A stretch of 64,000 nt of DNA from an uncultured Gammaproteobacteria bacterium. GTDB lineage: Bacteria; Patescibacteriota; Patescibacteriia; Magasanikbacterales; GWA2-37-8. Each line of letters opens with the position of its first letter. The first letter of the stretch is position 1. Both the position numbers and the translations under genes were made by a program. The DNA lies in NCBI GenBank assembly GCA_964482695.1, contig CAYZYP010000001.1, forward strand, positions 68,143 through 132,142, written 5' to 3'. The notes beneath the pieces are model-generated. The model did no database searches. It was not told where the DNA came from and saw only the letters and a list, made by a program, of their open reading frames with translations. This document shows, one piece after another, positions 7,767-64,000 of the stretch.

Positions 7767-7771
7767 CTATT

Positions 7772-10218: not shown

Positions 10219-10325
10219 TGATATTTTAGATCAATCCCGAAGTGATCCTCTAGGGATTAAAATAATTTTTAATTAATTAGAACAAACTTGCTAATTTACG
10301 CAAATTGTTCTTTAAGGGAGGTTTT

Positions 10326-11189: not shown

Positions 11190-11209
11190 ATCTCATAATT
11201 TTTGTATTT

Positions 11210-12457: not shown

Positions 12458-12469
12458 ATTATCTAAATT

Positions 12470-14017: not shown

Positions 14018-14034
14018 AATTATAATTTTCAAAT

Positions 14035-24956: not shown

Positions 24957-24997
24957 CCGCCCCGCGTGTTCACACCGCGGGGCGTTCTCTTTTTGTT
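24957..24997 (+). terminator. Rho-independent terminator (ccccgcgtgttcacaccgcgggg followed by a T-run).
   Basis: Strong GC hairpin and a U-tract immediately after the stop. Confidence 0.7.
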
Positions 24998-25057
24998 AGT
25001 ATTTTTTTGTGGTATAATATTATTATCATTCTTCTTAACTTCGTAATTTTTATTTTC

Positions 25058-35427: not shown

Positions 35428-38400
35428 ATGAGGAGGGATAAATTTAAAATATTTTTTGTTATTTTTAGTATTGTTTTAATCATAGTCGTGGGAGTAATTT
35501 ACGAGCGCGCTAGTAGTTATGATTCTGTTTTAACGCATCCTGGAATTGTTGTTCTGGCGGCTAAATTACATAATGACAAGGCGGAAAGAAAATTAACACT
35601 TCAAGAAATAAATTGGTTGGCCGAAGGAGCAGAGTTAGAAGATACACCTACTCGCTGGCTTAACCATTTTTATGATCCAGTAAGTAGCCGTGGCTTAAAA
35701 GGTATTTATTTGTCAGCCAAAAAATGGGCTAAAAACAGTGATAAACAGAAAAATTATGCCTTAGGCGACAATAGTTGGCTTAGAGCAATAGATGATTATA
35801 AAAAAGGGAATTATGAACAGGCTTTCAAAGCTTTAGGCCATGTTTTGCATTTAATAGCCGACGTATCTGTGCCGGCTCATACGCGCGACGATATTCATAT
35901 TTACAGCGATTCTTACGAAGAATTTGTAAAGCAGAATTGGCATGCTTTAAAATCGCGATTAGATCAAGAAAATTTAACTGTCAATAATTTGGAAAATATT
36001 TTTGATCAATTAGCTTTTTACAGCAATAATAATTTTTTTAGCGATGATACAATAGTAGATTCTAAGTATAAACTGCCAAGTTTAGAATTTTTAGATGTCC
36101 AAGGTGATTATTTAATCAGTAATTTAGACAATAAAGATTATAAGTTAGCTTACAAATTAGCGCGTTTTAGACAATCTATATTTGATCAGCGTTTTATTAT
36201 TTACAAACTAGACGCGTCTGTTTTGTCTGACTATGCCAGATTTCTTTTGCCAAAAGCCATCAGTTATAGCGCTAGTGTAATAAATTTATTTTTTGCTGAA
36301 ATACAAAATAATGTTCCACGAAATTTATCATCAGAGCGTGTTAATGTTTTGGGGCAAGTTAATCAGGCGGTTGGCGCTGTAGTTAGTAAAGGAGAAGAAA
36401 TAATAGAAAAAATTAGTTTATTAGAAGACCAAAAAGATGTTATTTACGAAAATGTTTTAAACCTAGGTGACAAATTAGACCCAAACGAAAGTATGGCAGA
36501 ATTTTTTGTAGTAGAAGATAAAGAAAAAAACGATGACGATATAAATAATATAGAAAACGTGCCAATTGAGACAAGTAAAGAAGAGGTAAAGTTAATAGAA
36601 TTGCCATCAATTATTTTGGAAAATAATGAAAATAATAGCTATGCTTATTTATTTACCGCGATAGCGGCCGATAGTGATAATTTAACAGCTTCAAATACAG
36701 TGGCGTCTGTTGTTGCTAGTAGTACGATAGTGGCGACATCTACTCTTTTTACTACAACAACAATATTTGTTACCTCTACTTTAGTTACTTCCACTACAGC
36801 TGTTACTTCTACTATTGTAATTTCTACCAGCAGTATTATTAACAGCTCTCTTGTTTTTGACGCAGCAACAACTACCGATGATTATTATGTCGCAACTTCT
36901 ACTAATCAATCTGGCGTTGTTTCTCCATCCTCAACAGTTAGCGATGATTTAAGTATGGAGGTAATAATAAATGAGATAGCTTGGGCAGGTGTATCTAGCG
37001 ATTTTCCCAAAGATGAGTGGTTTGAATTATATAATAATACCGATAAAGAGATAGATATTACTAATTGGAAAATTTTAGTGTCTGGCCGAGAAATTAAGTT
37101 AGAAAATATAAAAAATATTATAATAAAGCCTTACGGATATTATTTATTAGAAGCAAACAGAACAGAGCGGATGATCGGCCTAGAGCCGGATGCTTTGTAT
37201 GACCTAACTTACGGCATTAATAATCAAGGGGCTAAAATAGAATTATTTAATGAACAGGGTGTAAAGATAGATGAAGTAGATTGTTCTAATGGCTGGTTTT
37301 TTGGCGACAATGTTAAATATCGTTCTATGGAAAGATTAGATTCTTTGGCTGATGGTAATGATATAAATAATTGGCAGAGTAATTATGGTCCGCGGGCAGA
37401 GCCGCGCACTTATTTGGGCGGACCAATTTATGGCTCGCCAGGCATGCCTAATTTTGGTTTTATTTCTTTGCGTGGCGCGCAAGAAAACAATATTGTTGAT
37501 TTAACTTATGAAAATAATCCTTATGTGTTAGAAAATTACGAAATTCCCGTTGGAAAAATATTAAATATTCAGCCAGGAGTGATTGTTAAGGGTTATAGCC
37601 AGTTGGCTAGAATAGATGTTAAGGGGGAGTTAAATATAAACGGTACGATTGCCGAGCCAGTAGTTTTTACTTCTGGCCGGGATAATACTTTTGGCTACGA
37701 TTTGTATGATACAATGGTCGGCCAATGGAACAGTGAACTGGCTGTTGGCAAAGATTGGCAAGGATTTAGATTTTATCCAGAGTCAACAGGCAAAATAGAT
37801 TATTTAGAAATGCGTTATGCCGGAGCAGATTTTAAATTACTAGATAACGATGCTAATACAGTTTCCGAAGCAATTAGGGCGGATGGAGCCAATATTAATA
37901 TAAATAGCAGCACATTTTATTACAATGGGTCTAAAACAGTAGTTTTAGATAATACTTTTACTAGTATTAAAAATACCGCCTTTGTTGGCGGAGAAGTAGC
38001 AATAGAATCAAAAGACAGTAATTTGAATTTATTTAATCTTAACTTTGATTATTACAGCGCTATTGATGGCATTTTATCAATTAGCGGTGATTGGCCTAAA
38101 CTAGAAAATTTAGTAGCCGGAGAAGGAACAAATAATTTGTTTAAATTTGAAAAAATAGAAATGAAGCCAGATGATTTATTGAATATAGCGGCGGCGTTTA
38201 TTGGAGATGACGATTTAGATGGTGGCGTAGTTAACAATAGTAAAGTAATAACCCTGTTTAATGATTGGCAATATTTGTTTAGTGAATTATCGGTAGAAGC
38301 AGGTGTTACTTTGCGTATCAAAGAGGGAACTAATATTTATTTAAATAATCGTGGAGTTATTGATATCAAAGGCCAATTAGAGTCTTTGGGAACCGCAGAT

Positions 38401-38895
38401 AAGCCAATTAATATTTTACCTTTTTCTGGCTCGTGGGCTTATATAATATTTAATAATACTAGTTCAACTTTAAATTATACAAATATTATTAGTGGTGGCG
38501 CTTTTCCAGAAATTTATAACACAGCGTTACTAGTCAATAATTCTAATCTTAATTTAAATAATTGTTATTTGTGGAATCACCGCCAGCCAGGGAACGTGAT
38601 AAAAGCAACTAATTCAATTTTGAACTTAGTAGTTAGTGAAATTGGCGCGGACAATCGTTGGCCCAACCCGCTTTTCCCAGGTATGTCTTATTCTACTGGC
38701 ATTGATTTAACTGGTGGAGAAATTTATTTAGAGAGTACGAATTTTGAGAATTTAAATTTTGGTGTTTATTCTCATCAGTTAAATAATCAAATGCCAATAA
38801 TTAAAATTAAAGATATGTTTTTGGATAATTTTATCAATGTTTACAATCAATGGGAACCTTGGGTTGCTTGGCACTATGTGCCATTTGCTTCTTAA
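35428..38895 (+). CDS. Large (1155 aa) secreted/surface protein. It has an N-terminal zinc-phospholipase-C/P1-nuclease-like domain, a Ser/Thr-rich linker, a lamin-tail domain (LTD) and a C-terminal right-handed beta-helix region.
   Basis: N-terminal TM. 'HVLHLIADVSVPAHTRDD' is His/Asp-rich. The linker is 'ASSTIVATSTLFTTTTIFVTSTLVTSTT'. 'VIINEIAWAGVSSDFPKDEWFELYNNTDKEIDITNWKI' has the LTD motif pattern. Gly/Asn-rich repeats follow. Confidence 0.55.
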   Translation: MRRDKFKIFFVIFSIVLIIVVGVIYERASSYDSVLTHPGIVVLAAKLHNDKAERKLTLQEINWLAEGAELEDTPTRWLNHFYDPVSSRGLKGIYLSAKKWAKNSDKQKNYALGDNSWLRAIDDYKKGNYEQAFKALGHVLHLIADVSVPAHTRDDIHIYSDSYEEFVKQNWHALKSRLDQENLTVNNLENIFDQLAFYSNNNFFSDDTIVDSKYKLPSLEFLDVQGDYLISNLDNKDYKLAYKLARFRQSIFDQRFIIYKLDASVLSDYARFLLPKAISYSASVINLFFAEIQNNVPRNLSSERVNVLGQVNQAVGAVVSKGEEIIEKISLLEDQKDVIYENVLNLGDKLDPNESMAEFFVVEDKEKNDDDINNIENVPIETSKEEVKLIELPSIILENNENNSYAYLFTAIAADSDNLTASNTVASVVASSTIVATSTLFTTTTIFVTSTLVTSTTAVTSTIVISTSSIINSSLVFDAATTTDDYYVATSTNQSGVVSPSSTVSDDLSMEVIINEIAWAGVSSDFPKDEWFELYNNTDKEIDITNWKILVSGREIKLENIKNIIIKPYGYYLLEANRTERMIGLEPDALYDLTYGINNQGAKIELFNEQGVKIDEVDCSNGWFFGDNVKYRSMERLDSLADGNDINNWQSNYGPRAEPRTYLGGPIYGSPGMPNFGFISLRGAQENNIVDLTYENNPYVLENYEIPVGKILNIQPGVIVKGYSQLARIDVKGELNINGTIAEPVVFTSGRDNTFGYDLYDTMVGQWNSELAVGKDWQGFRFYPESTGKIDYLEMRYAGADFKLLDNDANTVSEAIRADGANININSSTFYYNGSKTVVLDNTFTSIKNTAFVGGEVAIESKDSNLNLFNLNFDYYSAIDGILSISGDWPKLENLVAGEGTNNLFKFEKIEMKPDDLLNIAAAFIGDDDLDGGVVNNSKVITLFNDWQYLFSELSVEAGVTLRIKEGTNIYLNNRGVIDIKGQLESLGTADKPINILPFSGSWAYIIFNNTSSTLNYTNIISGGAFPEIYNTALLVNNSNLNLNNCYLWNHRQPGNVIKATNSILNLVVSEIGADNRWPNPLFPGMSYSTGIDLTGGEIYLESTNFENLNFGVYSHQLNNQMPIIKIKDMFLDNFINVYNQWEPWVAWHYVPFAS

Positions 38896-39371: not shown

Positions 39372-41453
39372 ATGAAAAAACATATTGAACTAGTTGTTAA
39401 GATTTTAATTTACGCCACTTTTCTTGTCCCTTTAATAGTTATACCCAGTTCTTTTATATTTCCCTTTATCGTGCCGAAAATATTAATTTTCCGTTCTTTG
39501 GTAACAGCCATGCTTGCTGGCTATATATTGCTTTTGATAATTAATTGGCAGGAATACAAGCCAAAACTAACAATTTTAAATATAGTTTTAGCCGCTTTTT
39601 TACTTAGTTTTGCTATTTCTACTTTTGTTGGCACAGACGCATACCACAGCTTTTGGGATAATCACGAACGCATGTTGGGTTTGTTTACTATTTTTCATTA
39701 TGTTGCCTATTATTTTGTCTGTACCGCGGTTTTTAAAAACTGGAAAGATTGGCAAATGGCTTTGCGCATTTTTTTAATTGCCGGCACTTTGGTAGCAATA
39801 ATTGGCTTGCTGCAAGTAGGTAATCCGTATTTATTGCTCAATCAGGGAGGCACTCGTGTTGCCAGCACATTAGGCAATTCTATTTATTTAGGCGGTTATG
39901 GATTATTTTTATCTTTTGTCGCTTTTTTATTAATTATCAGAGAAAAATACACTATTTGGCGTTTAGCAGAGGGATTTTTGGGATTATTAGCGGTTTTAGC
40001 CATGTTTTATAGTGGCACGCGCGGTTCTATGCTTGGCTTGGTAGCTGGTGTCGGCGTTTTGTTGGTTGGTTATGTCATTGTTTTAAGAGAACATCCCAAA
40101 ACACGTTTAATTATAGGCGGAATTATTTTGGCAGGAATAGTTTTATTGGGGATTCTTTATACTTATCGACAAACTAATTTTGTTAGCAGTATCCCAGCAG
40201 TTGGTCGTTCGCTTAACACCAGTTTGACCTCGTTAAAAAACAGCCCTCGTTGGATAGCTTGGGAAATAGCCATAGACAGCTTTAAGCAACGGCCAATATT
40301 TGGCTGGGGGCCAAATAACTTTTTTTACGCTTTTAACGATAATTACAATCCACGTTCTTTGGAATTTGGTTATGGTGAAACGTGGTTTGACAACGCACAC
40401 AATATTATTGTCAATACTTTGGCTGTACAAGGGATATTTGGTTTGGTTGTTTATTTATCTATTTTTGTCTTATCAATTTTAGTTTTGTGGAAAACCTTTT
40501 ATCATCAAGGAATTAATAAACATTTAGTTGTTGCTGGCGCTGCTTTTTTAGTGGCTCATTTAGTACAGAATGTTACAGTGTTTGAAAATCCAACTTCATA
40601 TCTTTATTTTATGTTTTGGTTGGCAATGATTAATCAATTAACAATTGCCAGTCCTAAATTTTTAGAAAAAAATAGTGGAGTAGACGAATACAAAACGGCC
40701 AACAGGGCAGATAATAAAAACGGCAGAAAAGACCAAGAGATTGGATATTGGGCGTTTTCTACAGTTAGCGCTTTAACTTTGCTCTTAATTTTTATTTTTA
40801 ATATCCAGCCAGCCAGAGCTAACATGAAAACCCTAGAGGCTTTAAGAATGATTTCTTCGGAATACCCATCTTTGGGTGTAGAGCCAATGAAAGAGGCTTT
40901 GGCTTTTAGCTCTCCGCATATAGATGATATTCGCGCTGATATAGGTCGTACAGTTGGGCAAATAATCAACAGTTCTTATCAAAAGTTAGGATTAGACAAG
41001 AGCAAAGAAATTTTAGATATTGCTTATAATGCTTTGTCGGAAAATTTAACTTTGCATCCTTTGGATATTCGTAATCAATTAACTATTGCTCAATTAGCAC
41101 AGACAAAAGCAATTTTAGAAAATAATGCCAACTATTTGTTAGAAGCGGAAAAATTTTTAGAAGACGCGTTAAAAAAATCTCCTAAACGCCAGCAGATTAT
41201 TTATAATTTATCAAGTATTAAACTACAAGTTAATAAACAAACAGAAGCGGTTCAATTGATGGAGCAGACTATTAAAGACAATTATAAAATAGCCGAAAGT
41301 TATTGGCGTTTGGCTTATACTTATAAAGCTATTGGCCAATCGCAAAAAGCCAAAGAAACTATAGATCTGGCTTATAAAAATAATATTCAATTTAGTGACA
41401 ATGAAAAAGAAATTATCAAACAAATTTTAACAACAGCGACAACAACAAAATAG
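39372..41453 (+). CDS. O-antigen ligase/polymerase-like (Wzy_C family) membrane protein with a C-terminal TPR-repeat domain.
   Basis: ~10 TM helices with 'YSGTRGSMLGLVAGVGV' typical of Wzy_C. The C-terminal 250 aa contain TPR-like helices ('AESYWRLAYTYKAIGQSQKAKE'). Confidence 0.6.
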   Translation: MKKHIELVVKILIYATFLVPLIVIPSSFIFPFIVPKILIFRSLVTAMLAGYILLLIINWQEYKPKLTILNIVLAAFLLSFAISTFVGTDAYHSFWDNHERMLGLFTIFHYVAYYFVCTAVFKNWKDWQMALRIFLIAGTLVAIIGLLQVGNPYLLLNQGGTRVASTLGNSIYLGGYGLFLSFVAFLLIIREKYTIWRLAEGFLGLLAVLAMFYSGTRGSMLGLVAGVGVLLVGYVIVLREHPKTRLIIGGIILAGIVLLGILYTYRQTNFVSSIPAVGRSLNTSLTSLKNSPRWIAWEIAIDSFKQRPIFGWGPNNFFYAFNDNYNPRSLEFGYGETWFDNAHNIIVNTLAVQGIFGLVVYLSIFVLSILVLWKTFYHQGINKHLVVAGAAFLVAHLVQNVTVFENPTSYLYFMFWLAMINQLTIASPKFLEKNSGVDEYKTANRADNKNGRKDQEIGYWAFSTVSALTLLLIFIFNIQPARANMKTLEALRMISSEYPSLGVEPMKEALAFSSPHIDDIRADIGRTVGQIINSSYQKLGLDKSKEILDIAYNALSENLTLHPLDIRNQLTIAQLAQTKAILENNANYLLEAEKFLEDALKKSPKRQQIIYNLSSIKLQVNKQTEAVQLMEQTIKDNYKIAESYWRLAYTYKAIGQSQKAKETIDLAYKNNIQFSDNEKEIIKQILTTATTTK

Positions 41454-41471: not shown

Positions 41472-42791
41472 ATGCCGCAGGATGATAAAATTATTCAGAA
41501 AATAAAAGAATTTCCTCGACAAAAAGTTCTGGTAGTTGGTGATATGATGTTGGATAAATTTACTTATGGTGATATTTCTCGTATTTCTCCAGAAGCGCCA
41601 GTACCAGTTTTAAAGAAAATAGCTGATAAATATATTTTGGGAGGAGCTGGAAATGTTGCCAGTAATATTAAAGCATTGGGCGCGCAGGTTTTTTTAGTTA
41701 GCATGGTAGGAGCGGATGAAGCAAAAATACGAGTTTTTTCTTTATTGAAAAAAGCAAAGTTATCTTCGCGTTCTGTTCTTGTTAGTAAAGATGGATCAAC
41801 AACCATAAAACAGAGATTTGTTGTTGGCTCAACACAACAGTTGTTGCGGTTAGACGAAGAAAGCACAGAAGAAATGAATTTAAAAGAAGAAACAGCATTT
41901 TTAAAACAGTTAAAAAAGGTAATACCAGAATGCGATATAATAATTGTGTCCGATTATTGCAAAGGTTGTATAACTTTTAATATAGCCAGAGAGTTGATAA
42001 AATTAGCGAAAAAACATAAAAAAAGGGTGATAGTAGACACCAAGCCAATGCACAGAGATTTTTTCTTAGGAGCGGACATATTTACACCTAATATTAAAGA
42101 AGCGCAAGAAATGTCTGGCGAAGAAAATGTAGAAGAAGCCGGTAAAAAATTAGCTAAATTATTAAAAGCGACGATTTTGTTAACCAGATCGTCGGAAGGC
42201 ATGACGATTTTTAATAAAGATAATTTGGTTCAACACGTGCCGGCAAAATCAGCGCACAGAGTATTTGACGTAACCGGGGCAGGTGATACGGTAGTAGCCA
42301 TTTTAGCTTTATCTTTGGCTAGTGGCCTTAATTTAAAGGAGTCAGCAGAATTGGCCAATAATGCCGGTAGCATAGTAGTACAAAAGCCCGGGACATCAGT
42401 GTTGTCGGCGGCAGAACTGATTTCTAGTTTGGCGGAAATTGATAATGTAGCCACTACGAAAATAGTGCCAAAAGTTTGGGGTTATGAAAAATGGTTGGAA
42501 AATAATGAAAAATATTGTTGTAAGATTTTAGTGATTAAAAAAGATTTCCAATGCAGTTTGCATTTTCATAAAATTAAAGACGAAACTTTTTTATTGGTTA
42601 AGGGTTATTTACAAATGGAAGTGAATAAAAAAACAATTTATTTAAAACCAGGAGATTATATACGCATAAAACCCGGCGACAAACATCGTTTTACTGGGCT
42701 AGAAGAATCAGAAATTTTAGAAATTAGCACTCATCACGAAGAAAAAGATTCTTATCGTTTAATAAAGAGCAGAAGAGTGTTAGTAAAATAA
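41472..42791 (+). CDS. D-glycero-beta-D-manno-heptose-7-phosphate kinase (HldE/RfaE domain I, PfkB family) fused to a C-terminal cupin domain.
   Basis: 'VLVVGDMMLDKFTYGD' and 'DVTGAGDTVVA' are the PfkB anion hole motif. The C-terminal ~115 aa 'KVWGYEKWL...HFHKIKDETFLLVKGYL.....PGDYIRIKPGDKHRF' is a cupin. Confidence 0.65.
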   Translation: MPQDDKIIQKIKEFPRQKVLVVGDMMLDKFTYGDISRISPEAPVPVLKKIADKYILGGAGNVASNIKALGAQVFLVSMVGADEAKIRVFSLLKKAKLSSRSVLVSKDGSTTIKQRFVVGSTQQLLRLDEESTEEMNLKEETAFLKQLKKVIPECDIIIVSDYCKGCITFNIARELIKLAKKHKKRVIVDTKPMHRDFFLGADIFTPNIKEAQEMSGEENVEEAGKKLAKLLKATILLTRSSEGMTIFNKDNLVQHVPAKSAHRVFDVTGAGDTVVAILALSLASGLNLKESAELANNAGSIVVQKPGTSVLSAAELISSLAEIDNVATTKIVPKVWGYEKWLENNEKYCCKILVIKKDFQCSLHFHKIKDETFLLVKGYLQMEVNKKTIYLKPGDYIRIKPGDKHRFTGLEESEILEISTHHEEKDSYRLIKSRRVLVK

Positions 42792-42807
42792 GAATTTACA
42801 AAAGTTT

Positions 42808-43389
42808 ATGAAAAGAGCTATCTTTTTGGACCGGGATGGCGTAATAAATAAAGATCGCGGTTATACTTTTAAAATATTTGATTACGAATTATTGCCCGGT
42901 GTTAAACAAGGATTACAAAAATTACAAAAAGCGGGCTTTGGCTTATATGTTTTAACTAATCAATCGGGGATAGGCCGCGGTTTTTACACAGAAAATGATT
43001 ATTATAAATTTACTAACTATCTATTATCCGATTTAAATTCAGCCGGCATAAAAATAGCAGGCTGTTATTTTTGTCCGCACCATCCAACAAATGGGCAAGG
43101 GGAGTATAAAAAAGATTGTCATTGCCGTAAGCCAAAATCAGGTTTGTTGTTGCAGGCAGAAAAAAAAGATGGGCCGTTTGATTATAGAAAAAGCTGGGTT
43201 ATAGGAGACAGTATCAGGGATATTGAAACAGTAAAAAATATCCATCCCGAAGCAAGAGGTATTCTGTTGCCTAAAAATTACGATACCAATGATGAACTGT
43301 CTATTGAAGCAAAAGAAAAAAATAATAAATCAGTTAATTATTTTGTTGAAAATTTTTTACAGGCTGTTGATTTTATTTTATCTGAATAG
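42808..43389 (+). CDS. gmhB: D,D-heptose 1,7-bisphosphate phosphatase (HAD-IIIA).
   Basis: 'AIFLDRDGVIN', the Zn-binding 'CYFCPHHP....C.CRKP' and 'GDS..D'. Confidence 0.7.
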   Translation: MKRAIFLDRDGVINKDRGYTFKIFDYELLPGVKQGLQKLQKAGFGLYVLTNQSGIGRGFYTENDYYKFTNYLLSDLNSAGIKIAGCYFCPHHPTNGQGEYKKDCHCRKPKSGLLLQAEKKDGPFDYRKSWVIGDSIRDIETVKNIHPEARGILLPKNYDTNDELSIEAKEKNNKSVNYFVENFLQAVDFILSE

Positions 43390-43453
43390 TCATACAACGA
43401 GTAAATATTCCTTGATGTTGACGCTTCGAAGACTATTATTTAATAATTTAGAT

Positions 43454-43936
43454 ATGACAAAGAACAAAATAAAAAAAATAAATGAATTAGTTAAAATCAG
43501 ACAGCAGTTAAGAAAGCAGGGGAAGAAAGTAGTTACCACCAATGGTTCTTATGACATTTTTCATGTTGGCCATGTTCGTAGTTTAGAAGAATCCAAAGCC
43601 CAAGGAGATATTTTAATAGTAGGGGTAAATAGCGATAGTTCGGTAAAAAAATACAAATCAAAAGAAAGGCCTATTGTGCCAGAAAAATTGCGAGCAGAAT
43701 TAGTGGCATCGCTCGCCTGCGTTGATTATGTTTTTATTTTTTCCGAAATTAACCCAATTAAATTTATTAAAAAGTTAAAGCCAGATGTCCATACCAATAG
43801 CGTTGATTATGGTGAAAATTGCGTTGAAAAAGAAACAGTGGAAAAAAATGGCGGTAAAATTTATCTTTTAAAAAAATACAGTGATATATCTAGTTCAGTA
43901 ATTATCAAAAAAATTTTAGCGATGAATCGTAAATAG
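43454..43936 (+). CDS. D-beta-D-heptose 1-phosphate adenylyltransferase (HldE/RfaE domain II, cytidylyltransferase-like), encoded separately.
   Basis: 'VVTTNGSYDIFHVGHVRSL' is the (H/T)xGH nucleotidyltransferase motif. 'ILIVGVNSDSSVKKYK' is present. Confidence 0.7.
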   Translation: MTKNKIKKINELVKIRQQLRKQGKKVVTTNGSYDIFHVGHVRSLEESKAQGDILIVGVNSDSSVKKYKSKERPIVPEKLRAELVASLACVDYVFIFSEINPIKFIKKLKPDVHTNSVDYGENCVEKETVEKNGGKIYLLKKYSDISSSVIIKKILAMNRK

Positions 43937-44058: not shown

Positions 44059-45174
44059 ATGTTTTTTGTGAAATTGATATTGAAGAAGATAGTAATGAAT
44101 TTGAGTTATAGTTTTTTAGAATTGTGGGGGAAATTAAAGCAAAATCAGCTTAAAGATATAGAAAAAATTGGCATTTTATTTTTACCGCCATTAGGCATAG
44201 GCGATTTAGTAATGTTATCGCCAGCTACCCAAGAAATAAAAAATATTTTTCCTAAAGCAAAAATAAGTTTGATAACTTGGATACCAACTATTATCAATTT
44301 CAATGGAATAGAATTTGTACCTTATCAAAAAGAAAAAATTAAGCAGGAAAAATTTGATTTATTAATTTCGCCCACTTTGAATTTGCATCATTTACCTTTT
44401 ATTTTTTCTGCTAAATATTGGGTTGGTTACTTTGCCAAAGAAAGATTACAGGCGAATTTTAAAATTGAAAAATGCGATTATGATCCGCAAAATGAACATT
44501 ATTTTTGGCGATCCGTTTGTTTAATAAAATCTCTTAATAAAGAAAGCGGACAAAAGCTGCAAGAGCTAGCTCAAAAAAAGCGTCTGTCGTACCCAGAAAT
44601 AAAAGTTGGAGAACTAAAAGATTATCAAGAAAACGAATTGTTAAAAAGTCGCTATTTAGCAGTGGCTGTATTTTCTAAAATACCGGATAGATTGTGGCCA
44701 ATAGAAAAATACGCGCAAGTAATAGAGCAGGTTTATAATAATAAATATGTTGAAAAAATAGTTTTGCTTGGCGATGATAGTAAAAATAACGCCGCGACAG
44801 CGCGAAAATTAATTGATAATTTAACTTTGCCCAAAACAGCTATCTTAAATTTAACCGGTCAATGTAGTTTGTCCCAAGCAGCCTATATTATTAAAAATAG
44901 TTATTTATTTTTAGGTGCTGATTCCGGGCCGGCTCATTTGGCTTATTTTTTGGCTAAAAAGCCGGTAGCTATTTTTATCACTGTTGAACCCAATTTACGT
45001 TTGCCGTTGTTTATTGGTTTAGATAAAATTAAAACTGTTTATCCTTTTCCATCGCCACCATGTTCTTTGTATAATGGTTTAATGCCAGTGCCGGAAAAGG
45101 TGGTTAAGCAGTACAAAGAGAGGATTACAGTAGACGATGTTTTAAAAAAATTTGCTGAACTTGTAAAATTTTAA
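44059..45174 (+). CDS. Glycosyltransferase family 9 (ADP-heptose-dependent heptosyltransferase-like).
   Basis: 'GILFLPPLGIGDLVMLSPA' and 'FLGADSGPAHLA' are hallmark GT9 motifs. Confidence 0.65.
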   Translation: MFFVKLILKKIVMNLSYSFLELWGKLKQNQLKDIEKIGILFLPPLGIGDLVMLSPATQEIKNIFPKAKISLITWIPTIINFNGIEFVPYQKEKIKQEKFDLLISPTLNLHHLPFIFSAKYWVGYFAKERLQANFKIEKCDYDPQNEHYFWRSVCLIKSLNKESGQKLQELAQKKRLSYPEIKVGELKDYQENELLKSRYLAVAVFSKIPDRLWPIEKYAQVIEQVYNNKYVEKIVLLGDDSKNNAATARKLIDNLTLPKTAILNLTGQCSLSQAAYIIKNSYLFLGADSGPAHLAYFLAKKPVAIFITVEPNLRLPLFIGLDKIKTVYPFPSPPCSLYNGLMPVPEKVVKQYKERITVDDVLKKFAELVKF

Positions 45175-45769: not shown

Positions 45770-47047
45770 ATGTCGGAATTATTCTTTCACCAGTTAGATA
45801 TTACAAAATTAAATAATTATTTAATCCTGCTTGATATTGACGGCACAATTGTTTGTGATGGCAGTGAAAAAATAGAAGAGGACGCAGTTTTGAAGATAAA
45901 AGAATTAGCCAAAAATAACAAATTATATTTTTGTTCTAACAAAGGTGCTTGTAAACAAAGAGAAAATATTTTGAATTTAACAGGCGTGTCTTGTTTGGAC
46001 GCGCCACATCGCAAGCCAAGTAAAAAAATTTTACGATATATTGAAAACAAAGAATCACTGCCTTTGCTAATAATAGGCGATAAATATTTAACCGATGGCT
46101 TTTTCGCGAAAAATATCGGCGCGGAATTTATTAAAGTAAAAAGGTTAAAGTCTGCCAGTGATAGCTTGTTCGTTAAATTAACTTACTTGATAGATAATTT
46201 TGTCTATTTTGTGAAAGATTATTTTATATTATTGCGTCCTTGGCAATGGATAAAGAATTTTTTTGTTTTTGTACCGATATTTTTTGCCAAGGAAATTTTT
46301 TTGCCAACTAAATTATCAACGGCTTTTCTGGCGTTTATTGTTTTTTGTCTAACAGCCAGCGCCATGTATGTGATTAATGATATTTTTGATAAAAAAGCAG
46401 ATCAGGCTCATACCAAAAAGAACAAAAGGCCGATAGCGACAGGCAGGCTAAAGATTTGGCAGGCGATTATTATACTATTTTTGTTATTATTGTCGGCCGT
46501 GGCGATTATTTTTTATAAATTGCCGACTATTTGGCCGGTGATGGCTATTTATGTTATTTTAAATTTATTGTATTCTTCTTATTTTAAAAAGGTGGTTATT
46601 TTGGATCTTTTATTTATTTCCGTGTTTTATTTATTACGTGTTTTGGCCGGTGGCATCGCTACCAATACCTATATTTCACACTGGTTAATATTATGCGTAT
46701 TGTTCGTTACCTTGCTTATCATCATTGGTAAAAGAATAGCGGAATTTAAACAGCCTAACAAAAGGGAAGTCTTAAAATCATACAGTTTGAATTTTCTAGA
46801 ACATTTGCTTTCTGTTAGCGCTGGATTAACTCTGGTTTCTTATGGCCTGTATAGTTTTTTGGGCGTTAGTTCCCCCTGGATGGTTTATTCAACTTTGTTT
46901 ATAGTTTTAGGCGTTTTTCGTTTTCTTTTTTTAGTATATACTACCGACAAAACAGAATTTCCAGAAAAATTAATTTTGACTGACAGAGTATTATTGAGCT
47001 CTATTGTTTGTTGGCTATTGTATATGTATATAATTTTTTATCATTAA
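45770..47047 (+). CDS. Fusion protein with an N-terminal HAD-IIIA-like phosphatase domain and a C-terminal UbiA-family prenyltransferase (decaprenyl-phosphate phosphoribosyltransferase-like) domain.
   Basis: HAD motifs 'LLDIDGTIV', 'KPSKK' and 'IGDKYLTDG'. Then ~8 TM helices with the UbiA Asp-rich motif 'NDIFDKKADQAHTKKNKRPIATGRL'. Confidence 0.6.
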   Translation: MSELFFHQLDITKLNNYLILLDIDGTIVCDGSEKIEEDAVLKIKELAKNNKLYFCSNKGACKQRENILNLTGVSCLDAPHRKPSKKILRYIENKESLPLLIIGDKYLTDGFFAKNIGAEFIKVKRLKSASDSLFVKLTYLIDNFVYFVKDYFILLRPWQWIKNFFVFVPIFFAKEIFLPTKLSTAFLAFIVFCLTASAMYVINDIFDKKADQAHTKKNKRPIATGRLKIWQAIIILFLLLLSAVAIIFYKLPTIWPVMAIYVILNLLYSSYFKKVVILDLLFISVFYLLRVLAGGIATNTYISHWLILCVLFVTLLIIIGKRIAEFKQPNKREVLKSYSLNFLEHLLSVSAGLTLVSYGLYSFLGVSSPWMVYSTLFIVLGVFRFLFLVYTTDKTEFPEKLILTDRVLLSSIVCWLLYMYIIFYH

Positions 47048-47091
47048 CTTAAATTAAGCCAGAATAATATTGTTTTTAAAGTAAAAATTTT

Positions 47092-48129
47092 ATGTCACAT
47101 TTTTTAGTCACAGGAGGATCAGGTTTTTTGGGAATTAATTTAATCCGCCATTTGTTATCTCGCGGCCACAAAGTCCGTTCATTAGACATTGTGCCGTTTG
47201 ATTATCCGGAAAAAGATAAAGTAGAAACAATCTTGGGAGATATTAGAAATAAAGAAACAGTAGAAAGAAGTCTGGAAGGCATAGATATTGTGATACATTG
47301 TGCCGCCGCTTTGCCATTGTACAAAAAAGAAGATATTTTTTCTACTGATATAGAAGGCGCTAGAAACATGTTGCAAGCCGCGTATAAAAATAAAATTGAT
47401 CGCTTTATTCATATTTCTTCTACCGCTGTTTATGGCATTCCTGACCACCACCCATTGTGCGAAGAAGATAAGCTAGAAGGCGTTGGCCCTTATGGCCAAT
47501 CCAAAATAATGGCCGAATATCTTTGCCTAGAATACGCCCGCCGCGGCATGTGTGTGTCAATAATTCGCCCTAAATCATTCATTGGTCCAGAAAGATTAGG
47601 AGTATTTGCTTTATTGTATGATTGGGCTAAAGATGGTAAAAATTTCCCAATGATTGGCAGTGGCAACAATAGGTATCAGTTATTAGATGTAGAAGATTTG
47701 TGCGATGCGGTTTATTTGTGCGCCACCAAAGAAAAAAATATTGTTAATGATACTTTTAACATAGGCGCTAAAGAATTTACCACCATGAAAGAAGATTATC
47801 AAGCTGTTTTGGATAAGGCTGGCAAACACAAGAAAATAATTGGTTTCCCAGCCGGTCCGGCAATTTGGTTTTTGCGAGTTTTAGAAAAATTACATCTGTC
47901 ACCACTATATAAATGGGTATATGAAACAGCCAGCCACGACAGTTTTGTTTCTATAGAAAAAGCAGAAAAAAAATTAGGCTATTCGCCAAAATTTTCTAAT
48001 AAGCAAGCGCTTGTTAGAAATTATGATTGGTATTTGGCTAATTTAGAAAAATTTAAAGGTCAAAAAGGGGTATCTCATCGCGTGCCTTGGGGGCAGGGGG
48101 TATTGAAAATTGTTAAATTGTTTTTTTAA
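47092..48129 (+). CDS. NAD-dependent epimerase/dehydratase (extended SDR).
   Basis: 'LVTGGSGFLGINLIRHLL' is the Rossmann motif. The catalytic 'YGQSK' is present. Confidence 0.7.
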   Translation: MSHFLVTGGSGFLGINLIRHLLSRGHKVRSLDIVPFDYPEKDKVETILGDIRNKETVERSLEGIDIVIHCAAALPLYKKEDIFSTDIEGARNMLQAAYKNKIDRFIHISSTAVYGIPDHHPLCEEDKLEGVGPYGQSKIMAEYLCLEYARRGMCVSIIRPKSFIGPERLGVFALLYDWAKDGKNFPMIGSGNNRYQLLDVEDLCDAVYLCATKEKNIVNDTFNIGAKEFTTMKEDYQAVLDKAGKHKKIIGFPAGPAIWFLRVLEKLHLSPLYKWVYETASHDSFVSIEKAEKKLGYSPKFSNKQALVRNYDWYLANLEKFKGQKGVSHRVPWGQGVLKIVKLFF

Positions 48130-48135
48130 TGGCTT

Positions 48136-49839
48136 ATGAAATGGTTGAAAATAGACAATTTTATCTTTAATCGTTGGCAAGGCACGGTAATGGTGATATT
48201 AGTTTTTGTTATTGCTTCGGTATTTGGCGTTAATCAATATAGATATGGTTGGAGCGACCAAACGATAACTATCCCTTTTATCAAATTTTTTCTAAATCCA
48301 GAATTATTTTCTGGTGATTATTTATTAACGCAAATCCCGTATTATTATACTTTTTTGTGGTTTGGCTTGGCTGTTATAATCAAATATCTGCATCTTAGTA
48401 CCCCTGTTATTTTTTTTATCACTTATTTTTTATTAGTGGTTGCTTTATATTCAGCTATTTATTTAATTGCTCGGGAAATTTTTAAGAAAAAGGAAGTGGC
48501 TTTTTTATCGTTATTTTTTCTTTTGTTTGCCAATACTACTTTAGCTGGAGCAAATATTTTGGATGACATGTTGGTTACTAGAACAGCTGTTTTGCCATTT
48601 TTACTTTTTGCCCTTTATTTTTTTCTTAAAGAAAAGTATTTTATTACCTATTTACTTTTGGGTATTGGCTTTTTGATTCATCCTTTAACTGCTTTATACG
48701 TTTTTGCAATGATTTTTGTAGCTTCAATAGTAAATATTAAAAAAATAGGAGCTAAAAAATTATTTTCTGCCGGTGGATTTTTTTTAATTACAATACTGCC
48801 ATTAATAGTTTGGAAAACAGTATATTCACCGCAGTCATTTGGTTTGCTTCATGTAGATGCCAGTTGGTTGGAACTATTACGTTTACGTTCTAGTCATCAT
48901 ATTTTTCCATTTTCATGGAATTTAGATATTTTTTTAAAAGCAGTTTTAACAGCTGTATTATTTTTTTTCTCTTTCAGACGTGTGCCCTTTGGTAGCAGGA
49001 AGCGGGCAACCAGTATGTTTGTTGTCGCGATTGCCACTATGATGATAATTGGTATAATTTTTACCGAAATTTGGCCAGCTTCTTTCGCGTTGGAATTACA
49101 GTTTTTGAGGAGTTGGCAATTTTTTGTTTATCTAACAATAATTTATTTTTCTAATTATTTTGTTAATCAGTTAGAAGAAGGGAAAAAGATATTACCATGG
49201 TTATTATTGGTTATTGGCTCAATCGCTTTTTTCTATAATACCTCGGAAAAACGTTTAACTGATTATTCCTTATTTATTTACGCCGGATTTATAGGAGGTT
49301 TTATTTTGTTGTTTTTATTTTTAAAATTCTTAAAAAGAAAAGAATTACTATTAAAAGGTTTTATTTATTTTATTGTTTGTTTTTCTTTGGCGGTTGGTGG
49401 CGTAGCCTATGCTATGCAGAAAAATTTTACTATTTACAACGCTCAAGATAAATTATGGTTAGATGTTCAGTATTGGGCCAACAAAAATACCAGCTCAACC
49501 GCTATGTTTATTGTTCCGCCCAGCATAGAAGGTTTTAGAGTAGAATCAGAAAGAACAATATATGCTGACTGGAAGGATGGCACATTACTTAATTTTAATC
49601 CTCAGTTTGGCACAGAATGGCTTAGAAGGATGAAAAAATTAGGTTATAAAAAAGGGGATAGGGATTCTTTGGAGCGTGGCTACATGAGTTTAGCTGAAAA
49701 GGATTTTATAGGAATAATCAAAGAACAGTCTTTGGACAAAGGGCCTTGGTATGTGGTAATGTATAAGGAACGCGGAGATTTAAACTTGCCTATTGTATAT
49801 CAAAATGGTAAGTTTATTGTTTACAGGACAACTAAATAG
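48136..49839 (+). CDS. Large polytopic membrane protein with a C-terminal soluble domain. Putative GT-C-fold glycosyltransferase using polyprenyl-phospho-sugar.
   Basis: ~12 TM helices over ~430 aa, then a ~140-aa soluble tail. It sits next to the UbiA-fusion and epimerase genes. No family was firmly recognised. Confidence 0.35.
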   Translation: MKWLKIDNFIFNRWQGTVMVILVFVIASVFGVNQYRYGWSDQTITIPFIKFFLNPELFSGDYLLTQIPYYYTFLWFGLAVIIKYLHLSTPVIFFITYFLLVVALYSAIYLIAREIFKKKEVAFLSLFFLLFANTTLAGANILDDMLVTRTAVLPFLLFALYFFLKEKYFITYLLLGIGFLIHPLTALYVFAMIFVASIVNIKKIGAKKLFSAGGFFLITILPLIVWKTVYSPQSFGLLHVDASWLELLRLRSSHHIFPFSWNLDIFLKAVLTAVLFFFSFRRVPFGSRKRATSMFVVAIATMMIIGIIFTEIWPASFALELQFLRSWQFFVYLTIIYFSNYFVNQLEEGKKILPWLLLVIGSIAFFYNTSEKRLTDYSLFIYAGFIGGFILLFLFLKFLKRKELLLKGFIYFIVCFSLAVGGVAYAMQKNFTIYNAQDKLWLDVQYWANKNTSSTAMFIVPPSIEGFRVESERTIYADWKDGTLLNFNPQFGTEWLRRMKKLGYKKGDRDSLERGYMSLAEKDFIGIIKEQSLDKGPWYVVMYKERGDLNLPIVYQNGKFIVYRTTK

Positions 49840-49845
49840 GGTTTT

Positions 49846-50838
49846 ATGTATTATACTGATAAAATTAACTCACTAAAAAGGATTTTTGGCACAGAAAATA
49901 TTGTTTTAGAAGAGCAGTCCTTGCGAGTTGATAATAAAAACTATCCTATTATAGACGATGTTATTATACTTTCTGATCAGACTAAATACACTGATTTTGT
50001 TAGAAAAAAGTTGGTTATTAAAGCTGATTTTAGTCAGCAAGAAAAAGATTTTTCCAAAGACATTCAATACACATTTGGCAGTGAATGGGAAGAATATAGC
50101 AAGATTTTGCCAGAACACCAGAAAGAATTTTTGCAATATTTTGACATCGTGGATTTAAAAGAATTACAAAATAGCGCGATTTGTGATTTGGGTTGCGGTA
50201 ATGGACGCTGGAGTTATTTTTTGAGAGAACAGTGTCAAGAGATAATATTGGTAGATTTTTCTGATGCCATATTTATTGCTAGAAAGAATTTAACAACAGT
50301 GAACAATTGTTTGTTTTTTATGTGTGATTTAAAGTCGTTGCCTTTTAAAAATAATTTTGTGAATTTCTTGTTTAGTATTGGCGTGTTGCATCATTTACCA
50401 ACCCCTTGTTTAGACGAGGTGCGTGTTTTGCGCAAGTATTCCCCAAAGTTGCTTGTTTATCTTTATTACGCGCTTGACAATCGGCCAATATATTTTCGTA
50501 TTTTATTAAAGTTAGTTACCAAGGCGCGTGTTATTGCTAGCAAGGTAAAAAGTAAATTTTTCCGCAAAATTTTTTGTTTTTTTGTCGCCTATCTAATTTA
50601 TGCGCCGCTTATTATTTTAGGACGGTTTTTAAACTTAATTAAATTAGGCAAATTTGTTCCTTTATATGAATTTTATAATAAAAAAAGCATGTTAAGAATA
50701 AAGCAAGATGTTTATGACAGGTTTTTTACTGGCATAGAACAAAGAGTGGCGCGTTTGGATATTTTAAAATTAAAAGATACTTTTAATGAAGTTATTATTT
50801 CTGATAATAAGCCTTACTGGCATTTTTTATGTAAGTAA
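49846..50838 (+). CDS. SAM-dependent methyltransferase domain with a C-terminal membrane segment.
   Basis: Motif I 'ICDLGCGNGRWSYFL'. C-terminal hydrophobic helices 'FFVAYLIYAPLIILGRFL'. Confidence 0.45.
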   Translation: MYYTDKINSLKRIFGTENIVLEEQSLRVDNKNYPIIDDVIILSDQTKYTDFVRKKLVIKADFSQQEKDFSKDIQYTFGSEWEEYSKILPEHQKEFLQYFDIVDLKELQNSAICDLGCGNGRWSYFLREQCQEIILVDFSDAIFIARKNLTTVNNCLFFMCDLKSLPFKNNFVNFLFSIGVLHHLPTPCLDEVRVLRKYSPKLLVYLYYALDNRPIYFRILLKLVTKARVIASKVKSKFFRKIFCFFVAYLIYAPLIILGRFLNLIKLGKFVPLYEFYNKKSMLRIKQDVYDRFFTGIEQRVARLDILKLKDTFNEVIISDNKPYWHFLCK

Positions 50839-50866
50839 TAATTTATAACAAGTTAGGATAAAATGT

Positions 50867-51799
50867 ATGTTTAATTCAATTAAAAATTTCGCTGTTATCG
50901 GTGTGGCTGGTTATATAGCCCCCAGACATTTGGAAGCTATTAAGGCTACAGGCAACAGGTTGGTTGCCGCTTATGATCCGCATGATTCCGTTGGTGTATT
51001 GGATAAATATGGTGATGATATAGATTTTTTTACTGAATTTGAGAGATTTGATCGTTATGTTGAAAAACACAAAAGGGATCCAAAGAGCGCGAAAAAAATA
51101 GATTATGTTTCAATCTGTTCGCCAAATTATCTGCATGACGCACATATACGATTTGGTTTGCGTATAGCCGCTAATGTTATTTGTGAAAAGCCTTTGGTAT
51201 TAAATCCATGGAATATTGATCCACTTATTGAATTAGAAAAAGAAAGTGGCAAAAAAGTTTTTACCATATTACAACTACGTCTGCACCCGTCTATTATCGC
51301 GCTTAAGGAAAAGATTCAAAACTCGCCAGCCGACCACAAGTATGATATCCGATTAATTTACATTACACCCAGAGGAAAGTGGTATCATAATTCTTGGAAA
51401 GGCAAACTTGATAAATCCGGTGGCGTGGCTACTAATATCGGCATTCATTTTTTTGATATGTTGATTTGGATTTTTGGTGAAGTATCAGGTCAAGAAGTTC
51501 ATGAGCGTAACGACAAGAAGGTAGCCGGGGTCATCAAGCTAAAGAGAGCTACTGTTAAATGGTTTTTATCTATTGATAAGAGTGATTTATCGGAAGTACA
51601 AAGAGAAAGAGGCGGGGCGTATCGTTCCATCACTGTTGACGGCCAGGAGATTGTTTTTTCTGACGGTTTCACTGACTTGCATACTAAGGTATATGAGAAT
51701 GTGCTTCGCGGAAAAGGTTACGGACTTGAAGACGTGCGACCTTCAATTCAGTTGGCACATGATATAAGAAACTCTGTAATAACGAAAGGATTCTTTTAA
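50867..51799 (+). CDS. Gfo/Idh/MocA-family NAD(P)-dependent sugar oxidoreductase (WbpB-like).
   Basis: 'NFAVIGVAGYIAPRHLEAI' and 'EKPL' motifs. It lies in the context of DegT and acetyltransferase genes. Confidence 0.65.
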   Translation: MFNSIKNFAVIGVAGYIAPRHLEAIKATGNRLVAAYDPHDSVGVLDKYGDDIDFFTEFERFDRYVEKHKRDPKSAKKIDYVSICSPNYLHDAHIRFGLRIAANVICEKPLVLNPWNIDPLIELEKESGKKVFTILQLRLHPSIIALKEKIQNSPADHKYDIRLIYITPRGKWYHNSWKGKLDKSGGVATNIGIHFFDMLIWIFGEVSGQEVHERNDKKVAGVIKLKRATVKWFLSIDKSDLSEVQRERGGAYRSITVDGQEIVFSDGFTDLHTKVYENVLRGKGYGLEDVRPSIQLAHDIRNSVITKGFF

Positions 51800-52802: not shown

Positions 52803-53753
52803 ATGAAGAATAAATTAAAAATTCTAGTTACAGGTGGTGGGGGTTTCATAGGCAGTGCTTTTCTGGTAAATAGCACAAAAGAAATGGAAGTAATATCGTT
52901 AGACCATGGTACAAACTATCCGAAATTGAAGAGTATTGTACCTTCAAATGTAGAACTTGTTCAAGGTAGCTTAAATAATGAAGATTTATTAGATGAAATT
53001 TTAAGAGGGGTTGAAGTAATTATTCATTTTGCAGGAGGAGGAGGCAACCGAGCTTGTTTGGAAGATCCGACAAAATCTTTGCTGAATAATGTATTAGGTA
53101 CAAGATTATTACTCAAAAAGGCTCTCCAATATAAAATAAAAAGATTTTTTTTTGCGTCAACTCAGTCGGTATACGGAACATTTTCAGAACGAGAGATGCC
53201 TTTAGTAGAAAAAAAATTACAGGAACCCGACGATTTTTATGCGGCTTTAAAAACATGTGCTGAAGCGACAATTATGGATCTGTTTAATAATTATGTTATA
53301 TTCCGCTTTGCTAATGTATATGGTTATGGAAGTGGATTGGGCGCTCAGTGGGGTGGTGTTATAGGCAAATTCATTAAATCTGGTTGTGATAATGCTGAAA
53401 TTTCTGTCTTTGGTACGGGTGAACAGAAAATTGATTTCGTTCATATAAATGATGTTGTTAAAGTTTTATTATTAACTTTAGGAAATCAAACAATTAAGAG
53501 CGAAATAATAAATGTAGGAAGCGGCAAAGGGACATCGATTAAAGAAGTCGGATTAACTGTAGCTCATGTCGCTCAAAGGAATTATAATCGATCCGTCAAT
53601 ATAAATTATAAACCAGCTCCTCCGGATAAAATTTGGCCTGATCGATGGCTATCAATCAATAAGGCAAAAGAACTCCTTCACTGGCAACCGCAAGTCTCTC
53701 TTGAAGAAGGTGTTAATGAAATGATGAATAAATATTTAAATGCATCAAAATAA
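52803..53753 (+). CDS. NAD-dependent epimerase/dehydratase (extended SDR).
   Basis: 'ILVTGGGGFIGSAF' and the catalytic 'YAALK'. Confidence 0.7.
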   Translation: MKNKLKILVTGGGGFIGSAFLVNSTKEMEVISLDHGTNYPKLKSIVPSNVELVQGSLNNEDLLDEILRGVEVIIHFAGGGGNRACLEDPTKSLLNNVLGTRLLLKKALQYKIKRFFFASTQSVYGTFSEREMPLVEKKLQEPDDFYAALKTCAEATIMDLFNNYVIFRFANVYGYGSGLGAQWGGVIGKFIKSGCDNAEISVFGTGEQKIDFVHINDVVKVLLLTLGNQTIKSEIINVGSGKGTSIKEVGLTVAHVAQRNYNRSVNINYKPAPPDKIWPDRWLSINKAKELLHWQPQVSLEEGVNEMMNKYLNASK

Positions 53754-53761
53754 ATATAAAT

Positions 53762-55599: not shown

Positions 55600-55684
55600 T
55601 AGTGAACAACCCTGTGGGTGCCTGTGAGGGCACACCACAGGGTGTGCTAATTATAAAATCAATTTATTTATTAAACAACGTAGT

Positions 55685-56440: not shown

Positions 56441-56488
56441 TATATAGTAGCATCAAATCTATTATCACACGCAACTTAATCTAGATAT

Positions 56489-57190: not shown

Positions 57191-57206
57191 ATTGAATTTA
57201 GTTTTT

Positions 57207-63632: not shown

Positions 63633-64000
63633 ATGTTAAAAAGTTTAGTAAAAAATTTAAAATTAACACTATTATTGTGCTGCGTGGTATTTAGACGTGT
63701 AGTTTACGGTAAGGCCACCAGGAGTGTTGGCGTGCCGCGTAAGATTGTTATAGCTCAATTTTCTAAATTGGGAGATATGGTGTGCACTACCCCCATGTTC
63801 AGAGCAGTTAAAGAACATTTTCCAGAAGTTAAGTTGTATGTTATCGGCAATGCCACTAACAAGTTTATTCTAGATGAAAATAAAGATGTAGATCACTATT
63901 TTATTTATAATCATAATTTTTTTAGATTATTATTAAAATTAAAAACAGAACAGGCCGATTTTGCCTGCATGTGTGCGCCGAATTTTATCGGCTTGGCATT
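63633..64000 (+). CDS. Glycosyltransferase family 9 (heptosyltransferase-like), 3'-partial at the window end.
   Basis: 'KIVIAQFSKLGDMVCTTPMFRAVKEHFPEVKLYVIGN' is the GT9 N-terminal motif. The ORF runs off the window. Confidence 0.55.
   Translation, partial: MLKSLVKNLKLTLLLCCVVFRRVVYGKATRSVGVPRKIVIAQFSKLGDMVCTTPMFRAVKEHFPEVKLYVIGNATNKFILDENKDVDHYFIYNHNFFRLLLKLKTEQADFACMCAPNFIGLA

Follow-up and report, generated by a model that had tools for sequence, protein, structure and literature searches.

The ADP-heptose pathway is well studied: its product is a precursor of lipopolysaccharide (LPS), a potent innate-immune agonist, and a ligand of the ALPK1-TIFA pathway, and GmhA, the isomerase of its first step, is an antibiotic-adjuvant target. 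GmhA (E. coli 2i22, B. pseudomallei 2x3y) adopts the alpha/beta SIS fold and binds a divalent metal through His/Glu-type ligands. In Gram-negative bacteria, the kinase and adenylyltransferase steps are combined in the bifunctional protein HldE. Here we describe a locus within a 64,000-nucleotide stretch of DNA (the window) that encodes, as HldE does, an N-terminal kinase domain followed by a second domain proposed to serve the same pathway. That second domain, however, is a cupin, and the adenylyltransferase, which is C-terminal in HldE, is a separate gene. In our assessment, the chances are evenly balanced that the cupin is a metal-dependent sedoheptulose-7-phosphate isomerase feeding the kinase to which it is fused. 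It would then be a non-homologous counterpart of GmhA, proposed to take the same first step before the kinase and predicted to have a similar metal site, but built on a beta-barrel with no sequence similarity to the SIS protein. It is very probable that the cupin is one of the ADP-heptose enzymes and that, judged by ancestry and active site, it is an isomerase. The genes concerned are as follows.

41472..42791, + strand: kinase-cupin fusion gene (439 aa)
41472..42434, + strand: heptose-7-phosphate kinase domain of the fusion (TIGR02198, 343 bits; PF00294 PfkB, 3.7e-45)
42447..42791, + strand: cupin domain of the fusion (aa 326-439), candidate sedoheptulose-7-phosphate isomerase (Cupin_2, PF01050, and Lyx_isomer matches)
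42808..43389, + strand: GmhB, D-glycero-D-manno-heptose-1,7-bisphosphate 7-phosphatase (HAD-IIIA; TIGR00213, 152.3 bits)
43415..43936, + strand: HldC / RfaE domain II-type heptose-1-phosphate adenylyltransferase, 173 aa (TIGR02199, 159 bits; PF01467, 1.7e-19)

Domain searches bear out what a preliminary description of the window had read from the letters, namely, a split pathway with separate, adjacent genes for the kinase, GmhB, and the adenylyltransferase, and a cupin at the C terminus of the kinase. Residues 11 to 320 of the fusion align to positions 2 to 314 of the 315 in TIGR02198 (rfaE_dom_I) at 343 bits, against a cutoff of 345, and the next-best family, ribokinase, reaches 98 bits. GmhB lies above the curated TIGR00213 cutoff of 149.6 bits. 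The adenylyltransferase lies below that of TIGR02199 (159.2 versus 181.5 bits), which it covers over its full length and which is its best family by far; it is treated as a divergent HldC member, assigned by context. Its start at 43415, the public gene call in L001, is more likely than that of the longest open reading frame (ORF), 43289. As for the cupin, residues of about 327 to 420 match Cupin_2 above cutoff (4.2e-8), and residues 329 to 408 match PF01050, the MannoseP_isomer C-terminal domain of type II phosphomannose isomerases (PMIs), at 28.8 bits versus a gathering threshold of 23.6. There is also a partial, weak Pfam match to PF07385 Lyx_isomer (22.6 bits, profile positions 83 to 112 of 222). 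The best named sequence matches are PF01050 and TIGR01479 (GMP-PMI). Could the fusion be an assembly artefact? It is not, because a search of a large protein collection returned more than 120 clusters with the same PfkB-plus-cupin architecture, 44 to 54% identical and all about 430 to 460 aa long. Named kinase-cupin clusters come from Patescibacteria (candidate phyla radiation [CPR]), for example, Daviesbacteria and Parcubacteria. In an alignment of 26 fusions, the cupin is the most conserved part of the protein.

This conservation extends to the active site. Both cupin motifs are present in the sequence, as LHFHKIKDE and GDKHRF (HxH...E and the motif 2 His), and the predicted metal ligands H364, H366, E371, and H405 are intact and invariant. 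So is K369-D370-E371, the first residue of which is the predicted catalytic Lys. All belong to a set of 30 residues that are invariant from CPR to DPANN archaea (window numbering): K334, W336, G337, E339, W341, N344, Y348, C349, K351, C361, S362, H364, H366, K369, D370, E371, F373, G378, E383, H405, R406, G409, E417, S419, T420, H421, H422, D426, S427, and R429. Four of these, R406, R429, K334, and K351, are the family's own and are candidate phosphate-binding residues. Cupins are frequently ligand-binding modules, and the domain might instead be a non-catalytic part of the kinase that senses sugar or metal for regulation. We consider this very improbable, given that the invariant set includes the full His/His/Glu/His site along with a catalytic-type Lys. 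Moreover, the same domain can have an operon gene to itself, precede or follow the kinase within one protein, or be joined to HldC in place of the kinase, which fits an enzyme better.

What kind of enzyme would it be? An AlphaFold2 model made from standalone homologues is all-beta and cupin-like (pLDDT 95.5). Its top Foldseek matches in the PDB are two small Thermococcus "phosphomannose isomerase" cupins (7zvm, 7zvy; TK0503; TM 0.80); next in rank are KdgF, D-lyxose isomerase, and the CapF cupin. The Thermococcus proteins, single cupin domains of about 110 aa, are thus the best structural matches but share only 19 to 24% identity with the window family. A profile of the family aligns with the B. 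subtilis D-lyxose isomerase 2y0o at E=3e-6 over both motif regions, and the two have in common the motifs N..YC.K.L, HxH...K.ETF, PN.KH.F, and E.S. The D-lyxose/D-mannose isomerases as a group (PF07385; YdaE 2y0o, TsLI 7nzo) share the cupin fold and a His-x-His...Lys-x-Glu...His constellation with the window domain. In the Thermofilum D-lyxose isomerase, H75, H77, E88, and H143 bind Mn2+, and K86 is proposed to stabilize the cis-enediol (PMC8378251); their window counterparts are, in the same order, H364, H366, E371, H405, and K369. On the other hand, these enzymes are about 170 to 230 aa long (the window domain is about 60 to 100 aa shorter), take unphosphorylated substrates, and are only about 23 to 25% identical. 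The type II PMI cupins (PF01050; AlgA/ManC/XanB, TIGR01479) have the WG, metal, and His-Arg motifs in common with the family and offer a parallel in architecture: a first-step isomerase, which is the role proposed here, is joined to an enzyme that acts further along the same route to a sugar nucleotide. They differ in that their first ligand is Gln rather than His, their partner is a nucleotidyltransferase rather than a PfkB kinase, and their substrate is a hexose rather than the heptose proposed here. The nearest characterized relatives of the cupin are aldose-ketose isomerases (type II PMI cupins and D-lyxose/D-mannose isomerases), not RmlC-type epimerases.

The presence of CapF, which joins a short-chain dehydrogenase/reductase (SDR) to a cupin, among the structural matches raises another possibility. 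The domain could be an epimerase or ketoisomerase of nucleotide-activated sugars, like the CapF cupin or RmlC/FdtA-like enzymes, and modify finished ADP-heptose. In one cupin subfamily, the domain is joined to an RmlD-like reductase that scores 199 bits on TIGR01214. This role is improbable in our view. In the Pfam search, neither PF00908 (RmlC-type epimerase) nor PF06560 (cupin-type phosphoglucose isomerase) was matched at E<=0.01, and there was no FdtA match to the cupin. The identities of RmlC-like, that is, dTDP-sugar, epimerase and of cupin-type phosphoglucose isomerase were both rejected for want of any family match. The reactions in question also require a 4-keto sugar, and the minimal operons described below have no dehydratase. 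Finally, the cupin is mostly fused to the kinase, which is the first committed enzyme of the pathway rather than its last.

Isomerase chemistry places the cupin at a particular point in the route. D-Lyxose/D-mannose isomerases and PMI convert a ketose to an aldose with the manno configuration at C2. The former handle lyxo/manno sugars, and D-glycero-D-manno-heptose has that configuration too. By analogy, the conversion of sedoheptulose-7-phosphate to D-glycero-D-manno-heptose-7-phosphate is the C7 counterpart of that of fructose-6-phosphate to mannose-6-phosphate. C1/C2 enediol chemistry needs a free anomeric carbon, and therefore the cupin, if it is in the pathway, would have to precede the kinase. 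Together with operon logic, this position makes the pathway isomerase the most economical reading. The analysis shows which domains are present, the residues of the metal site, the fold, and a conserved linkage by fusion and operon; the substrate and the reaction we infer. The cupin domain, with a divalent metal, would convert sedoheptulose-7-phosphate to D-glycero-D-manno-heptose-7-phosphate, and the fused PfkB kinase would take this product and phosphorylate O1. GmhB would then take off the 7-phosphate, HldC would add AMP, and GT9 enzymes would transfer the heptose. The heptose product of the window pathway is probably the D-glycero form.

How widespread is the cupin, and with which genes does it travel? 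When cluster representatives were searched with the cupin only, 1,199 clusters at the 50% identity level gave matches with E<=1e-10; the family occurs in Patescibacteria and DPANN archaea. Most members are standalone proteins of 110 to 160 aa. The standalone cupins, mostly from Woesearchaeota, Pacearchaeota, and Nanoarchaeota, are 50 to 58% identical to the window domain (about 120 aa in DPANN) and are annotated merely as "cupin domain-containing" or "quercetin dioxygenase-like." Among the best 150 of the 1,199 cluster representatives, the following fused architectures were counted.

kinase-cupin: n=13
cupin-kinase: n=7
kinase-HldC-cupin: n=1
cupin-kinase-HldC: n=1
HldC-cupin: n=1
cupin-NTP_transferase (P0281): n=1

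Proteins with all three domains (kinase, HldC, and cupin), P0261 and P0284, are rare. In a distance tree of 83 cupins, the window protein groups with other C-terminal fusions in a large clade from CPR. C-terminal fusions form at least one more clade elsewhere in the same tree, and an N-terminal fusion from Peribacteria (L023) stands apart again; the kinase-cupin fusion therefore arose more than once. Two other matches were set aside as lying outside the family: L011, an ordinary type II GMP-PMI drawn in by profile iteration, and the weak cupin of L173.

Genomic neighborhoods tell a similar story where the cupin is unfused. On a 322-kb archaeal contig from DPANN (L084/L085), the cupin is the first gene of an operon and precedes, in this order, an SDR, a PfkB kinase, a HAD phosphatase, an HldC-type transferase, and a GT2; in another DPANN locus, L086, the cupin again comes first, before the kinase, GmhB, HldC, and a GT9. 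The SDR adjoining the cupin in L007 scores above the curated ADP-glyceromanno-heptose 6-epimerase (HldD) model (TIGR02197, 284.7 versus 274.6 bits). In DPANN cupin operons with HldD, GmhA is thus the only known enzyme for ADP-L-glycero-beta-D-manno-heptose that is missing, and the cupin is one additional conserved gene. Of the 82 distinct cupin genes recovered from genomes and metagenomes, 31 encode fusions with the kinase and another 17 lie, unfused, no more than 3 kb from it. Two adjoin HldC or GmhB at a contig end, and two are fused to an SDR. The remaining 30 have nothing relevant nearby, 24 of them on short contigs. In the subset of 28 genes flanked on each side by 3 kb or more, kinase linkage (fusion or a distance of up to 3 kb) holds for 21. 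The other pathway genes may also be joined to one another: HldC and GmhB are fused in many CPR loci (e.g., L088 11293-12294 and L089 11321-12370), and HldC, GmhB, and GT9 are apparently joined in one ORF in L112 (5976-8297).

If the cupin takes the place of GmhA, is GmhA itself missing? A tblastn search of the window with E. coli GmhA (sequence verified against PDB 2i22) found no GmhA/SIS gene, and an SIS profile run with filters off over the window and two recovered flanks (about 78 kb) had no match, so the earlier statement that the cluster lacks an SIS-type GmhA holds for these 78 kb. The fusion protein itself shows no SIS similarity and falls outside TIGR00441; the cupin is at most a functional analogue of GmhA and not a member of its family. 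For CPR cupin loci on contigs of 1.14 Mb, 550 kb, and 820 kb, no SIS lies within 10 kb, and the minimal DPANN cupin operons have none within 8 to 10 kb. For comparison, at control loci, mostly with unfused Gram-negative HldE, canonical GmhA lies within 10 kb in 11 of 76, among the matches listed.

The observations that weigh against a cupin isomerase dedicated to ADP-heptose are 3-fold. (i) Characterized D-lyxose isomerases work on unphosphorylated sugars, and the "PMI" name of Thermococcus 7zvm/7zvy is an annotation, the describing paper containing no activity measurement. (ii) The family also occurs in other settings. Of the 28 informative loci, 6 have no heptose genes nearby. The cupin is housed in nonulosonic-acid-type (NeuB/CTP_transf_3) clusters in L158 and L162, follows pyruvate kinase in L154, and, in L161 and L167 (at about 9872-10378), lies alone and fully conserved between gyrB and gyrA, the nearest 10 kb being free of sugar genes. 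In L160 (9989-11623; P0277), it forms part of a 544-aa protein with the RmlD-like reductase (199 bits, TIGR01214) and a NUDIX hydrolase, with the key residues kept. Cupins in these non-heptose settings retain all 30 invariant residues. (iii) A GmhA-like SIS protein does exist across CPR. The copy in L094 (15911-16519) has 1,526 matches, 72 to 91% identical among the best 120, and its module lies 4 to 8 kb from the kinase-cupin gene in L094, L114, and L175. In the DPANN locus L086, a second module (SIS, divergent PfkB, and CTP-transferase) sits beside the cupin module. The cupin in these four loci is therefore not needed simply as a gap-filler.

The second group of observations bears on the idea that the cupin serves sugar-nucleotide synthesis in general as a small isomerase of mannose-6-phosphate or another hexose phosphate, its link to the kinase reflecting shared regulation or a kinase that in fact makes ADP-mannose from mannose-6-phosphate. 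The best named matches, PF01050 and TIGR01479, are to just such enzymes, and P0281 is fused to NTP_transferase, as in the type II PMI-GMP enzymes. The NeuB/CTP_transf_3 clusters and the RmlD-like plus NUDIX fusions are likewise settings in which mannose-6-phosphate could be a precursor. Set against this, heptose-pathway enzymes are overwhelmingly the fusion partners, and the kinase scores 343 bits on the heptose-7-phosphate model versus no more than 98 bits on other sugar kinases. The DPANN operon encodes an ADP-heptose 6-epimerase that passes its curated threshold and would have no part to play with a hexose, and GT9 heptosyltransferase-family genes follow the module. A hexose-phosphate isomerase is accordingly unlikely, if slightly less so than an enzyme of nucleotide-activated sugars.

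What, then, do the SIS proteins near the cupin do? The CPR SIS scores 56 to 107 bits on TIGR00441, against a cutoff of 209, and carries E65D and Q172E at positions for Zn binding or catalysis in canonical GmhA; it may be a distinct phosphoheptose isomerase subtype. It is always found in a module of GHMP kinase, SIS, and NTP_transferase, with or without HAD, which is the gene set of the GDP-D-glycero-alpha-D-manno-heptose route. Other CPR copies are in L173, L174, and L175 (at about 10001-10612), and one pair of an SIS match and a fusion protein, P0453 and P0054, is on a single 47,267-bp contig. The patescibacterial L175 shows ADP-type and GDP-type heptose modules side by side: a kinase-cupin gene, a 790-aa GT9, a GHMP-SIS-NTP_transferase module, and a lone HldC-type gene share one 15-kb glycan cluster (980-15925).

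These loci lend some weight to the strongest of the alternatives, in which an SIS GmhA encoded elsewhere isomerizes sedoheptulose-7-phosphate and the cupin acts on free-anomeric heptose-7-phosphate. It could be a C2 epimerase working via the ketose (gluco to manno), a stereochemically different isomerase, or an anomerase giving the beta-anomer to a beta-specific kinase. Cupin-kinase and GmhA-like SIS modules co-occur in L086, L094, L114, and L175, where the cupin is fully conserved, and with E65D and Q172E in the SIS protein, the two isomerases may be non-equivalent. We still find such a role doubtful, though it is the alternative most to be reckoned with. Every SIS near a cupin belongs to its own module, with its own kinase (GHMP or a second PfkB) and its own nucleotidyltransferase, and no cupin module includes an SIS. 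In addition, the minimal DPANN operons are free of SIS within the 8 to 10 kb noted above, and by curated models there is nothing unorthodox about the kinase, GmhB, and HldD, which favors the orthodox manno product.

The pattern fits one isomerase per module. The preliminary description had cast the cupin as a candidate replacement for GmhA; the part that stands is an isomerase-like cupin tied to ADP-heptose genes, while "replacement" proves too simple, with GmhA-like SIS proteins 4 to 8 kb from a cupin-linked kinase in four lineages. A better fit is that the cupin would be an additional isomerase, unrelated to GmhA, that serves the ADP module alone. The wider proposal, that the family is an unrecognized class of cupin-fold sedoheptulose-7-phosphate isomerases acting as the dedicated first ADP-heptose enzyme in Patescibacteria and DPANN archaea, is one that we hold a shade more tentatively than the reaction suggested for the window domain, at a little under even.

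Returning to the window, the heptose genes are flanked by further glycan genes, including the two GT9 genes that had been recognized at the outset.

39372..41453, + strand: Wzy_C (O-antigen ligase/polymerase-like) membrane protein with C-terminal TPR repeats (PF04932, 80 bits); ends 18 nt before the kinase-cupin gene
44059..45174, + strand: GT9 (heptosyltransferase-family) glycosyltransferase (PF01075, 73.5 bits versus gathering threshold of 22; public gene call starts at 44095)
63633..64000, + strand: second GT9, 5' part, cut by the window end (full-length product on public contig L171)

The partial ORF at 63633, searched alone, gave only weak N-terminal heptosyltransferase matches (E of about 2e-5) and no Pfam match. 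Its identity as a GT9 is confirmed because the same gene on L171 encodes a full-length, 387-aa product carrying PF01075. A GT9 gene follows the heptose genes in most related loci, and in the CPR locus L089, Wzy_C genes likewise lie upstream of the kinase-cupin gene. In the window, a single-strand gene run extends from 39372 to past 63465, with glycan-synthesis genes to the window end. The core heptose genes look like an operon because they share one strand and the gaps among the four core genes are 16 to 25 nt.

Downstream, the block at 45770-51799 begins with a fusion of HAD-phosphatase and UbiA-prenyltransferase (45770-47047); after it come an SDR, a GT-C (PMT_2/DUF6798), and a GFO/IDH/MocA oxidoreductase. 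The set is reminiscent of routes that supply polyprenyl-phosphate-sugar donors, mycobacterial decaprenyl-phosphoribose synthesis being one, and the same HAD-UbiA, SDR, GT-C, GFO/IDH/MocA order is also found downstream of the kinase-cupin module in L089. A further sugar-modification block at 52803-58304 (SDR, two DegT aminotransferases, WbqC, a methyltransferase, and a hexapeptide acyltransferase) suggests that the same glycan also carries an acylated amino-dideoxy sugar. Either window SDR as HldD was ruled out (44 and 99 bits versus the cutoff of 274.6). Just upstream of the glycan cluster, 35428-38895 encodes a 1,155-aa secreted-type protein with a Ser/Thr-rich stretch, a lamin-tail domain, and a weak N-terminal Zn-phospholipase-C-like match.

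The chromosome has a low G+C content, about 34%, and also carries aminoacyl-tRNA synthetases, lower glycolysis, a penicillin-binding protein, and a Mur ligase. Right after enolase are tandem cofactor-independent phosphoglycerate mutase paralogues of 515 and 525 aa (12470-15612). One stretch, 23655-26665, departs from the rest at 45.5% G+C versus about 35% elsewhere; it holds a 433-aa ORF without assignment and a seven-transmembrane-receptor histidine kinase, and no rRNA or other Rfam family was found in it. The window sequence is contained again in groundwater metagenome contigs. Since the nearest relatives are Patescibacteria, it is plausible that the host organism is not expected to make LPS.

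What would such an enzyme mean? Expression of hldE has been noted in ultra-small groundwater lineages (PMC9938205), and our search of the literature on cupin-type sedoheptulose/phosphoheptose isomerases and on heptose in CPR/DPANN found no description of such an enzyme. If the proposal is true, it would be a clear case of non-orthologous displacement at the first step of ADP-heptose synthesis. CPR and DPANN genomes that are now scored as unable to make heptose would have their pathway calls corrected, and a family now labeled "cupin domain-containing" or "quercetin dioxygenase-like" would receive a name. The SIS proteins of neighboring GDP-type modules would serve a separate heptose pool, possibly of other stereochemistry. 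ADP-heptose would be made and used for surface glycans by ultra-small bacteria that lack LPS and by archaea. Overall, the candidate enzyme family is widespread, spans both prokaryotic domains, and would define a variant of the known ADP-heptose pathway. It points, too, to surface glycans that contain heptose in Patescibacteria and in DPANN archaea, organisms for which surface contacts with their hosts are central to their biology.

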